Shown here piece by piece: positions 18,560 through 25,577 of a stretch of 64,000 nt of DNA. This DNA is from Escherichia coli (GTDB taxonomy: Bacteria; Pseudomonadota; Gammaproteobacteria; Enterobacterales; Enterobacteriaceae), in NCBI RefSeq assembly GCF_048403405.1, contig NZ_CP183129.1; one strand, written 5' to 3'. The translations under genes and the position numbers were made by a program. Positions within the stretch are counted from its first letter, which is position 1. Each line of letters opens with the position of its first letter. The notes under the pieces were generated by a model. It was not told where the DNA came from. It did no database searches and saw only the letters and a program-made list of their open reading frames with translations.

Positions 18560-18703
18560 TCAACACCAACCGGAACCTCCACCACGTGCTCGAATGAGGT
18601 GTGTTGACGTCGGGGGAAACCCTCCTGTGTACCAGCGGGATAGAGAGAAAGACAAAGACCGGAAAACAAACTAAAGCGCCCTTGTGGCGCTTTAGTTTTG
18701 TTC
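18560..18703 (+). ncRNA. sraL: candidate small RNA SraL (RyjA) in the ghxP-soxR intergenic region
   Basis: ORF-free stretch ending in a GC-rich hairpin (18668..18698) followed by a U-rich tract on the + strand, overlapping the soxR stop codon; position matches my recollection of SraL; 5' end is a guess. Confidence 0.4.
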
Positions 18704-19156
18704 ATCTTCCAGCAAGCGTGCGCCGGTACCTTCTTCTCCTAAGCGGTCGCCCGGGTTACGCAATGGGCAATCACTGCGCGAAAGGCAGCCACAACCAATA
18801 CATCCGTCCAGCTCGTCACGCAGCGCCACTAAGGTATGAATGCGCCGATCCAACTCTTCTCGCCATTGGGACGAAAGCTGTTTCCACTCTTTCGCACTTA
18901 ATGTATGCCCTTCGGGCAACACGCCAAATGCTTCACGAATGGTCGCCAGCGGAATGCCAATACGCTGAGCAATTTTGATGATTGCGACATATCGCAACAC
19001 ATCACGTTTATATCGCCGCTGATTGCCACTATTACGGATACTGCTAATCAACCCTTTGCTTTCATAGAAATGCAGCGCCGATACCGCCACACCGCTGCGT
19101 TTTGCCACTTCGCCGGGGGTTAGCAGCGCTTTAATGCGGGGTAATTTCTTTTCCAT
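18692..19156 (-). CDS. soxR: redox-sensing MerR-family regulator SoxR
   Basis: 154 aa, MerR HTH N-terminus and C-terminal [12 protein letters not shown] [2Fe-2S] cluster motif. Confidence 0.95.
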
Positions 19157-19241: not shown

Positions 19242-19565
19242 ATGTCCCATCAGAAAATTATTCAGGATCTTATCGCATGGATTGACGAGCATATTGACCA
19301 GCCGCTTAACATTGATGTCGTCGCAAAAAAATCAGGCTATTCAAAGTGGTACTTACAGCGGATGTTCCGCACGGTGACGCATCAGACACTTGGTGATTAC
19401 ATTCGCCAACGCCGCCTGTTACTGGCCGCCGTTGAGTTGCGCACCACCGAGCGTCCGATTTTTGATATCGCAATGGACCTGGGTTATGTCTCGCAGCAGA
19501 CCTTCTCCCGCGTTTTCCGTCGGCAGTTTGATCGCACTCCCAGCGATTATCGCCACCGCCTGTAG
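19242..19565 (+). CDS. soxS: AraC-family superoxide response regulator SoxS
   Basis: 107 aa, MSHQKIIQDLIAWIDEHIDQPLNIDVVAKKSGYSKWYLQRMF; divergent from soxR. Confidence 0.95.
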   Translation: MSHQKIIQDLIAWIDEHIDQPLNIDVVAKKSGYSKWYLQRMFRTVTHQTLGDYIRQRRLLLAAVELRTTERPIFDIAMDLGYVSQQTFSRVFRRQFDRTPSDYRHRL

Positions 19566-21963: not shown

Positions 21964-22500
21964 TCAGAACGGAATATCGTCATCAAAGTCCATCGGCGGC
22001 TCATTAGACGGTGCTGCCGGAGCAGACTGCTGCGGGCGAGACTGCGCGCCGCCGCTGAACTGATTGCCGCCCTGCGGCTGCTGAGGCTGACCCCAACCGC
22101 CCTGCGGCTGACCACCACCGATATTGCCACCTGCAGGAGCGCCACCACCCTGACGACCACCCAACATCTGCATGGTGCCGCCAACGTTCACCACGACTTC
22201 TGTGGTGTAGCGATCCTGACCGGATTGATCGGTCCATTTGCGGGTACGCAGCTGACCTTCGATATAAACCTGAGAACCTTTACGCAGATATTCGCTGGCC
22301 ACTTCTGCCAGTTTGCCGAACAGCACAACGCGGTGCCATTCAGTCTGCTCTTTCATCTCGCCGGTCGCTTTATCACGCCAGGATTCGGAAGTAGCCAGCG
22401 TAATGTTGGCAACTGCGCCACCATTTGGCATGTAGCGTACTTCCGGGTCCTGACCCAGATTACCAACGAGAATAACCTTGTTTACGCCTCTGCTGGCCAT
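21964..22500 (-). CDS. ssb: single-stranded DNA-binding protein
   Basis: 178 aa, [44 protein letters not shown], Gly/Gln-rich tail ending DFDDDIPF. Confidence 0.95.
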
Positions 22501-22653
22501 GTTCGTGTCTCCTGAAAAAAAATCGTTCTGAATAAGTGTAAACGCGCGATTGTACCATTACCAATAGCGCTTTTACTATGTTGTGACCTCGGTTCCGGGA
22601 AACAAACCTGGCCAGACATTGTTACACAACACTCCGGGTAATGCATTCCAATA

Positions 22654-22669
22654 CTGTATATTCATTCAG
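22654..22669. promoter_or_regulatory. LexA box in the ssb-uvrA divergent promoter region
   Basis: CTGTATATTCATTCAG matches CTGT-N8-ACAG, about 90 bp upstream of uvrA ATG. Confidence 0.8.
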
Positions 22670-22754
22670 GTTAATTTGTGTCATAATTAACCGTTTGTGA
22701 TCGCCGGTAGCACCATGCCACCGGGCAAAAAAGCGTTTAATCCGGGAAAGGTGA

Positions 22755-25577
22755 ATGGATAAGATCGAAGTTCGGGGCGCCCGCACCCATAATCTCAAAA
22801 ACATCAACCTCGTTATCCCCCGCGACAAGCTCATTGTCGTGACCGGGCTTTCGGGTTCTGGCAAATCCTCGCTCGCTTTCGACACCTTATATGCCGAAGG
22901 GCAGCGCCGTTACGTTGAATCCCTTTCCGCCTACGCGCGGCAGTTTCTGTCACTGATGGAAAAGCCGGACGTCGACCATATTGAGGGGCTTTCTCCTGCC
23001 ATCTCAATTGAGCAGAAATCGACGTCTCATAACCCGCGTTCTACGGTGGGGACAATCACCGAAATCCACGACTATTTGCGTTTGTTGTTCGCCCGCGTTG
23101 GCGAGCCGCGCTGTCCGGACCACGACGTCCCGCTGGCGGCGCAAACCGTCAGCCAGATGGTGGATAACGTGCTGTCGCAGCCGGAAGGCAAGCGTCTGAT
23201 GCTACTCGCGCCAATCATTAAAGAGCGCAAAGGCGAACACACCAAAACGCTGGAAAATCTGGCAAGCCAGGGTTACATCCGTGCTCGTATTGATGGCGAA
23301 GTCTGCGATCTTTCCGATCCGCCGAAACTGGAACTGCAAAAGAAACATACCATTGAAGTGGTGGTTGATCGCTTCAAGGTGCGTGATGATCTTTCCCAAC
23401 GTCTTGCCGAGTCGTTTGAAACTGCGCTGGAGCTTTCCGGTGGTACCGCGGTAGTTGCGGATATGGACGACCCGAAAGCGGAAGAGCTGCTGTTCTCCGC
23501 TAATTTCGCCTGCCCAATTTGCGGCTACAGTATGCGCGAGCTGGAGCCGCGACTGTTTTCGTTTAACAACCCGGCAGGGGCCTGCCCGACCTGTGACGGC
23601 CTTGGCGTGCAGCAATATTTCGATCCTGACCGCGTGATCCAGAATCCGGAACTGTCGCTGGCTGGCGGTGCGATCCGAGGCTGGGATCGCCGCAACTTCT
23701 ATTACTTCCAGATGCTGAAATCGCTGGCAGATCACTATAAGTTCGACGTCGAAGCGCCGTGGGGCAGCCTGAGCGCGAACGTGCATAAAGTGGTGTTGTA
23801 CGGTTCTGGCAAAGAAAACATTGAATTCAAATACATGAACGATCGTGGCGATACCTCCATTCGTCGTCATCCGTTCGAAGGCGTGCTGCACAATATGGAG
23901 CGCCGTTATAAAGAGACGGAATCCAGTGCGGTACGCGAAGAATTAGCCAAGTTTATCAGCAATCGCCCGTGCGCCAGCTGCGAAGGGACGCGTCTGCGTC
24001 GGGAAGCGCGCCATGTGTATGTCGAGAATACGCCGCTGCCTGCTATCTCCGACATGAGCATCGGTCATGCGATGGAATTCTTCAACAATCTCAAACTCGC
24101 AGGTCAGCGAGCTAAGATTGCGGAAAAAATTCTTAAAGAGATTGGCGATCGCCTGAAATTCCTCGTTAACGTAGGCCTGAATTACCTGACACTTTCCCGC
24201 TCGGCAGAGACACTTTCTGGCGGTGAAGCCCAGCGTATCCGTCTGGCGAGCCAGATTGGTGCGGGCCTGGTTGGCGTTATGTACGTGCTGGACGAGCCGT
24301 CTATCGGCCTGCACCAGCGCGATAACGAGCGCCTGTTGGGTACGCTTATCCATCTGCGCGATCTCGGTAATACCGTGATTGTGGTGGAGCACGACGAAGA
24401 CGCGATTCGCGCCGCTGACCATGTGATCGACATTGGCCCGGGCGCAGGTGTACACGGCGGTGAAGTGGTCGCAGAAGGTCCACTGGAAGCGATTATGGCA
24501 GTGCCTGAGTCGTTGACCGGGCAGTACATGAGCGGTAAACGCAAGATTGAAGTGCCGAAGAAACGCGTTCCGGCGAATCCGGAAAAAGTGCTGAAGCTGA
24601 CAGGCGCACACGGTAATAACCTGAAAGACGTGACGCTGACGCTGCCAGTCGGTCTGTTTACCTGCATCACAGGGGTTTCAGGTTCCGGTAAATCGACACT
24701 GATTAACGACACACTGTTCCCGATTGCCCAACGCCAGTTGAATGGGGCGACCATCGCCGAACCGGCACCGTATCGCGATATTCAGGGGCTGGAGCATTTC
24801 GATAAAGTGATCGATATCGACCAAAGCCCAATTGGTCGTACTCCGCGTTCTAACCCGGCGACCTATACCGGCGTGTTTACGCCTGTGCGCGAACTGTTTG
24901 CGGGCGTACCGGAATCCCGTGCGCGCGGTTATACGCCAGGACGTTTCAGCTTTAACGTCCGTGGCGGACGCTGCGAAGCCTGTCAGGGCGACGGCGTGAT
25001 CAAAGTGGAGATGCACTTCCTGCCGGATATCTACGTGCCGTGCGACCAGTGCAAAGGTAAACGCTATAACCGTGAAACGCTGGAGATTAAGTACAAAGGC
25101 AAAACCATCCACGAAGTGCTGGATATGACCATCGAAGAGGCGCGTGAGTTCTTTGATGCGGTGCCAGCTCTGGCGCGTAAGCTGCAAACGTTGATGGACG
25201 TTGGCCTGACGTACATTCGCCTCGGGCAGTCCGCAACCACCCTTTCTGGTGGTGAAGCCCAGCGCGTGAAGCTGGCGCGTGAGCTGTCAAAACGCGGCAC
25301 CGGGCAGACACTGTATATTCTTGATGAGCCGACCACCGGTCTGCACTTCGCCGATATTCAGCAACTGCTCGACGTACTGCATAAACTGCGCGATCAGGGC
25401 AATACCATTGTGGTGATTGAACACAATCTCGACGTGATCAAAACCGCTGACTGGATTGTCGACCTGGGACCGGAAGGCGGCAGTGGTGGCGGCGAGATCC
25501 TCGTCTCCGGTACGCCAGAAACCGTCGCGGAGTGCGAAGCTTCGCATACGGCACGCTTCCTCAAGCCGATGCTGTAA
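22755..25577 (+). CDS. uvrA: excinuclease ABC subunit UvrA
   Basis: 940 aa, two ABC ATPase modules ([20 protein letters not shown]) and zinc-finger Cys clusters. Confidence 0.97.

Follow-up and report, generated by a model that had tools for sequence, protein, structure and literature searches.

A single LexA operator lies in the intergenic region between the divergently transcribed genes ssb and uvrA in a 64,000-nt stretch of Escherichia coli DNA (hereafter the window), and we identify it, with a probability of about 0.93, as the known E. coli uvrA/ssb SOS operator. It overlaps a predicted core promoter element in each direction. The evidence supports one operator common to both repair genes, with an asymmetry: uvrA depends on the site far more strongly than ssb, for which it is quantitatively marginal in E. 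coli. This operator is already known; papers on the SOS response have described it since 1983, and every LexA regulon table lists it. As a discovery the result carries little weight; it serves as a positive control, in which an experimentally characterised operator was located to the exact base from the sequence. What was computed here is where the site lies, how significant and conserved it is, that it equals the K-12 element, that lexA is present and how the site is placed with respect to consensus promoter elements. The literature supplied the LexA-dependent expression and, through the summary in PMC9505508, the three promoters of ssb and the fact that the box overlaps the uvrA -35 element.

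The operator in the ssb-uvrA spacer

The window belongs to an E. coli chromosome, and a 460-bp stretch around the site has matches of 100% identity in many complete E. coli genomes and is found in 5425 of 5426 of them. On the minus strand, the reverse-strand open reading frame of ssb begins with an ATG at 22500..22498, and together with uvrA on the plus strand it flanks a spacer that holds one operator (Table 1). A sequence-only reading of the same DNA had named a 254-bp spacer between the divergent ssb and uvrA and, within it, the LexA box CTGTATATTCATTCAG at 22654..22669; both positions proved exact to the base. Just upstream of the region studied here there is a further divergent regulator pair, soxR (18692..19156, minus strand) and soxS (19242..19565, plus strand), separated by 85 bp and named after the RefSeq annotation of identical DNA.

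Table 1. Genes, operators and predicted promoter elements of the ssb-uvrA and lexA regions, in window coordinates
Feature	Position	Strand	Description and basis
ssb	21964..22500	-	178 aa, single-stranded DNA-binding protein; open reading frame, RefSeq ssb1 on identical DNA, NCBIfam PRK09010 (360 bits)
Divergent ssb-uvrA regulatory region	22501..22754	.	254 bp
ssb ribosome-binding site	22509..22514	-	CAGGAG; invariant in 8/8 aligned Enterobacterales sequences
Candidate LexA-independent proximal ssb promoter P3	22549..22557	-	extended -10 TGGTACAAT; relaxed scan
Candidate LexA-independent ssb promoter P2	22618..22626	-	extended -10 TGTAACAAT; kept through Photorhabdus as TG-n-AATAAT; conservation 0.78
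LexA operator (SOS box)	22652..22671	.	20-mer TACTGTATATTCATTCAGGT; core 16-mer at 22654..22669
Predicted distal ssb promoter P1	22655..22684	-	-35 ATGACA at 22684..22679, 18-nt spacer, -10 TATACA at 22660..22655; hand-read
Predicted uvrA promoter	22659..22687	+	-35 TATTCA at 22659..22664, 17-nt spacer, extended -10 TG-n-CATAAT at 22679..22687; relaxed scan
uvrA	22755..25577	+	940 aa, excinuclease ABC subunit A; open reading frame and RefSeq annotation of identical DNA
dinF	37495..38874	-	directly downstream of lexA
lexA	38893..39501	-	202 aa; NCBIfam TIGR00498, 289.5 bits (cutoff 110.95)
lexA operators	39510..39525 and 39531..39546		tandem, directly upstream of lexA; pattern and consensus scans

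An SOS box of the E. coli type is an imperfect palindrome of 16 bp, CTG-N10-CAG, in which the centre is AT-rich and (TA)5-like. The core 16-mer in the spacer has this architecture and differs at three positions from the consensus CTGTATATATATACAG. Its two halves are very unequal: compared with the consensus half TACTGTATAT, the left half-site matches at 10 of 10 positions and the right one at 5 of 10. This asymmetry fits leaky repression and the mid-range heterology index published for the uvrA/ssb box, given as 6.98 (PMC9505508), 6.2 (PMC11228462) and 6.23 (PMC11002266). Values of 6.2-7.0 are covered by the span that PMC11228462 lists for classic SOS genes.

When up to three mismatches to CTGTATATATATACAG were allowed, four matches were found in the window versus 0.14 ± 0.38 expected, and none of 100 shuffles reached four. 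The looser pattern CTGT-N9-CAG gave 13 matches versus 5.5 ± 2.6 expected and is therefore weak evidence by itself. Exactly one consensus-like box is present in the ssb-uvrA spacer; searches there for a second operator, by exact CTGT-N9-CAG or by the 16-mer consensus with at most three mismatches, returned none. Two of the three remaining CTGTATATATATACAG-like matches are the operators of lexA.

Two other box-like sequences were rejected as operators. The one at 35967..35982 (CTGTCTACATATAAAG) has no CAG arm and lies within an open reading frame, so it was treated as a chance match; this frame (35339..36295, minus strand) encodes 318 aa and has no NCBIfam family. The other, CTGTATGTTTTGTCAG at 54524..54539 on the minus strand, departs from the 16-mer consensus at five positions and is probably due to chance as well. 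It lies between genes, some 120 nt upstream of an open reading frame of 136 aa (53992..54402, minus strand).

The gene for the cognate repressor lies in the window, about 16 kb away from the ssb-uvrA operator. As lexA is accompanied by its own operators, the window holds its own positive control and the gene of the repressor. The lexA operators resemble the ssb-uvrA box in their CTG-N10-CAG architecture, in their core-promoter position and in being recognised by the same repressor. They differ in that they serve one transcription unit, with dinF following directly downstream of lexA, whereas the ssb-uvrA box is a single site serving two divergent units and, unlike the lexA operators, has strongly asymmetric half-sites.

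Predicted promoters and conservation around the box

A strict scan for sigma-70 promoters and terminators over 22400..22860 found nothing. The promoters are hence weak matches that lean on extended -10 elements, and their assignment is weaker than that of the operator. We therefore describe elements obtained with a relaxed consensus scan and by reading hexamers by hand (Table 1); the exact hexamers of P1, P2 and P3 are our putative assignments. The best plus-strand sigma-70 candidate is the predicted uvrA promoter, with a predicted start near 22694, and its -35 element falls within the LexA box. In the opposite direction, the predicted -10 element of the distal ssb promoter P1 sits in the perfect left half-site, while the predicted -35 element of P1 overlaps the uvrA -10 element, so that the two promoters would be arranged back-to-back and interdigitated. 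Thus the operator covers a predicted core element of either gene, the P1 hexamers being assigned by hand. Further downstream on the ssb strand, the two extended -10 elements TGTAACAAT and TGGTACAAT appear to fit the published LexA-independent ssb promoters. The TGGTACAAT element is kept as TG-n-TA(C/G)AAT in six Enterobacteriaceae-like sequences and is not kept in Photorhabdus.

According to PMC9505508 (citing Brandsma 1983, 1985; Fernandez de Henestrosa 2000), one SOS box overlaps the uvrA -35 element and, of the three ssb promoters, acts on the most distal one only. A box outside both promoters would have spoken against the sequence-only reading. Instead, the box was found within the predicted cores, and the second-hand account of the mapped promoters in that paper agrees with this placement.

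For an assessment of conservation, 80 gammaproteobacterial loci were gathered with the first 200 residues of UvrA as a query, which is independent of the box, together with 1.5 kb of upstream DNA. A box of the E. coli type was counted if the CTG and CAG arms were intact, at most four mismatches to the 16-mer consensus were present and the distance upstream of uvrA was at most 400 nt. Such a box occurred in 18 of the 80 loci, namely in all seven Enterobacterales, three Pasteurellaceae, Aeromonas, three Vibrio, Enterovibrio, Psychromonas, Parashewanella and Colwellia. Shuffles of the same upstream regions yielded 0.16 ± 0.38 boxes with a maximum of two, and the 162 kb of uvrA coding sequence from these loci contained none. 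In the Pasteurellaceae, the spacer is 146-156 bp long and the box lies in its middle, with the uvrA ATG 61-65 nt and the ssb ATG 68-75 nt away.

Within an alignment of the spacer from eight Enterobacterales, the 16-nt window starting at 22654 ranked first of 239 for conservation. Identity to the window sequence was 0.90 in the box versus 0.58 in the spacer outside 22650..22689, showing conservation beyond background in orthologous promoter regions. The block TGTGTCATAAT, which adjoins the box at the uvrA -10 element, reached 0.95 in the same eight sequences. The box overlaps promoter hexamers, and its own conservation and theirs can be told apart only in part.

Ten other gammaproteobacterial loci have divergent ssb and uvrA genes and no CTG-N10-CAG anywhere in the spacer (loci L029, L037, L047, L048, L052, L053, L056, L060, L062 and L063). 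They are non-enteric, with spacers of 163-511 bp, and include Amphritea, Marinobacterium and several metagenome-assembled genomes. Since divergent pairs without a box exist, the gene arrangement is not itself the source of the box; the arrangement is commoner than the operator, which is an addition restricted to certain lineages.

In seven of eight Enterobacterales, the box and the ssb ATG are 150-153 nt apart; this includes Photorhabdus, with which the intervening sequence is mostly unalignable. The exception is Klebsiella sp. BIGb0407, with 126 nt. Towards the uvrA ATG, the distance ranges from 68 to 191 nt in the eight sequences. The upper value belongs to Photorhabdus cinerea, in which an insertion of about 125 nt (locus L008, about 1330..1455; alignment columns about 248..375) lies between the uvrA -10 element and the uvrA ribosome-binding site and leaves the box and the -10 element undisturbed. 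Its sequence (…GTGAATCCCCGGGAGCATAG…GTGACCGGGGTGAGCGAG…) is probably similar to enterobacterial repeats of the ERIC/IRU type. That the spacing is constrained by a coupling of the operator and P1 to P2, to P3 or to the leader of ssb, for instance through helical phasing of LexA and polymerase at the downstream promoters or through leader-dependent control of ssb, appears improbable to us; conservation of the downstream promoter elements may already suffice to account for the constant distance between box and ssb. To our knowledge, such a constraint has not been described before for the ssb-uvrA operator.

Conserved RNA structure in the ssb P1 leader was considered as a reason for this constant distance and found no support: RNAalifold gave just three invariant pairs, located where the coding sequence begins, without any covariation, and the single-sequence fold of the ssb leader was unremarkable (z = -1.84). 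In the uvrA leader, the hairpin CCGGTAGCACCATGCCACCGG was considered and discarded as a feature: its stem is only partly kept in relatives, and the leader as a whole showed no better folding than its shuffles (z = 0.16). Rfam returned no match with E ≤ 1 in 22350..22900.

Alternative readings and the unequal effect on uvrA and ssb

Near-palindromes in AT-rich intergenic DNA may arise by chance, and most matches to CTGT-N9-CAG in the window are of this kind, given 13 found against 5.5 expected. Yet the stricter consensus match is expected only 0.14 times per window, the site is the most conserved window of the spacer, and it recurs upstream of uvrA in several gammaproteobacterial orders. The results on conservation and enrichment thus refute a chance origin, to which we give practically no credence. 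A related possibility is that the block is conserved only as promoter sequence, as the uvrA -35 and the ssb P1 -10 element, and resembles a LexA box incidentally. The box does overlap both predicted core promoters, and the adjoining uvrA -10 block is equally strongly conserved (0.95). However, the CTG and CAG arms persist at an exact spacing of 10 nt in Photorhabdus, Pasteurellaceae, Aeromonas and Vibrio despite differing promoter sequence around them, 18 boxes stand against 0.16 expected, and LexA-dependent expression is documented in the literature (PMC9505508, PMC8072944, PMC11228462). We therefore regard conservation as promoter sequence only as very improbable.

More substance attaches to the proposal that the site is in effect an operator of uvrA only, placed upstream of ssb just by the divergence of the genes, and that the two proximal constitutive promoters drive ssb, with no physiologically meaningful effect of LexA; we consider this unlikely, though less so than the other two alternatives. 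Following AZT treatment, RNA-seq showed uvrA induced 3.9-fold with a 4.4-fold lexA dependence, compared with 1.5-fold and 1.0-fold for ssb (PMC11228462). The increase in ssb mRNA came later and was smaller than that of uvrA, and the SSB protein did not rise significantly (PMC11002266). During unperturbed growth, ssb mRNA was equal in the wild type and in lexA3, and three microarray studies and several immunoassays detected no ssb induction (PMC9505508). The pair of conserved extended -10 elements that follow the box on the ssb strand and the ten divergent ssb-uvrA loci lacking a box point in the same direction. Against this stand RT-qPCR measurements in which the UV- and gamma-induced expression of ssb was abolished in lexA3, and the overexpression of ssb in a constitutive-SOS mutant (PMC9505508). 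Moreover, Salmonella, which has the same common box, shows a 9.6-fold induction of ssb (PMC8072944), Vibrionaceae in which an insertion divides the gene pair reportedly retain one LexA site for ssb and another for uvrA (PMC3323433), and the ssb strand offers a good predicted -35 element, ATGACA, along with a -10 element inside the box. Laboratories disagree on how much the common operator contributes to ssb expression, a matter that sequence analysis is unable to decide. The earlier claim that one operator is placed so as to influence both DNA-repair genes accordingly stands for the shared site over both predicted promoters and for uvrA, which is clearly LexA-dependent; for ssb, the effect is weak and conditional, SOS-dependent induction appearing only upon strong induction (PMC9505508), and the literature is mixed, whereas it is consistent for uvrA.

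For the common operator, which we prefer, the following mechanism can be proposed. A single LexA dimer site would lie in the overlap of two back-to-back sigma-70 promoters, and bound LexA would cover the uvrA -35 and the ssb P1 -10 element, keeping RNA polymerase off both promoters simultaneously, presumably by steric exclusion. Upon DNA damage, RecA on single-stranded DNA would trigger the self-cleavage of LexA, and both promoters would be freed. As one half-site is perfect and the other poor, and the heterology index is mid-range, repression would be leaky, allowing a substantial basal level of both genes. The uvrA gene, having this promoter only, would be induced about 4-fold. Most ssb mRNA would be supplied by the two downstream LexA-independent promoters, which would leave a small SOS induction that becomes visible only on strong induction.

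Comparison with K-12 and other known systems

The uvrA/ssb SOS box of K-12 MG1655 occupies the same locus with an identical 20-mer and the same gene order and spacing; judged by this match, the operator in the window is the K-12 element in another E. coli strain. The K-12 box was reportedly described by Brandsma et al. (1983 Nature 305:243; 1985 NAR 13:5095) and by Fernandez de Henestrosa et al. (2000), all as cited in PMC9505508. Only two differences from K-12 exist in the spacer, both outside the operator. One is a C to T change at 22672, a position that directly follows the 20-mer on its 3' side and falls in the spacer of both overlapping predicted promoters. The other is a run of eight instead of seven A residues at 22516..22523, just upstream of the ssb ribosome-binding site, by which the spacer measures 254 bp here versus 253 bp in K-12. 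The window 60-mer 22640..22699, which spans position 22672 and leaves out the A-run, occurs free of mismatches in 704 of 5396 complete E. coli records (about 13%).

Sinorhizobium meliloti is an alphaproteobacterium in which LexA recognises a different motif. It also possesses a divergent uvrA-ssb pair, the regulation of whose divergent transcription was studied, to judge by the title of Tapias and Barbe 1999 (cited in PMC2248561). Closer to the situation described here is Salmonella enterica, which like E. coli has divergent ssb and uvrA genes and one common LexA box, with a heterology index of 6.99; this likeness is drawn from PMC8072944, as no Salmonella locus was among those fetched. DNA damage induced uvrA 11.2-fold and ssb 9.6-fold in Salmonella, and the basal expression of ssb was LexA-independent (PMC8072944); the value for ssb exceeds most measurements in E. 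coli. In Vibrionaceae with an insertion between ssb and uvrA, each of the two genes reportedly has a LexA site of its own (PMC3323433).
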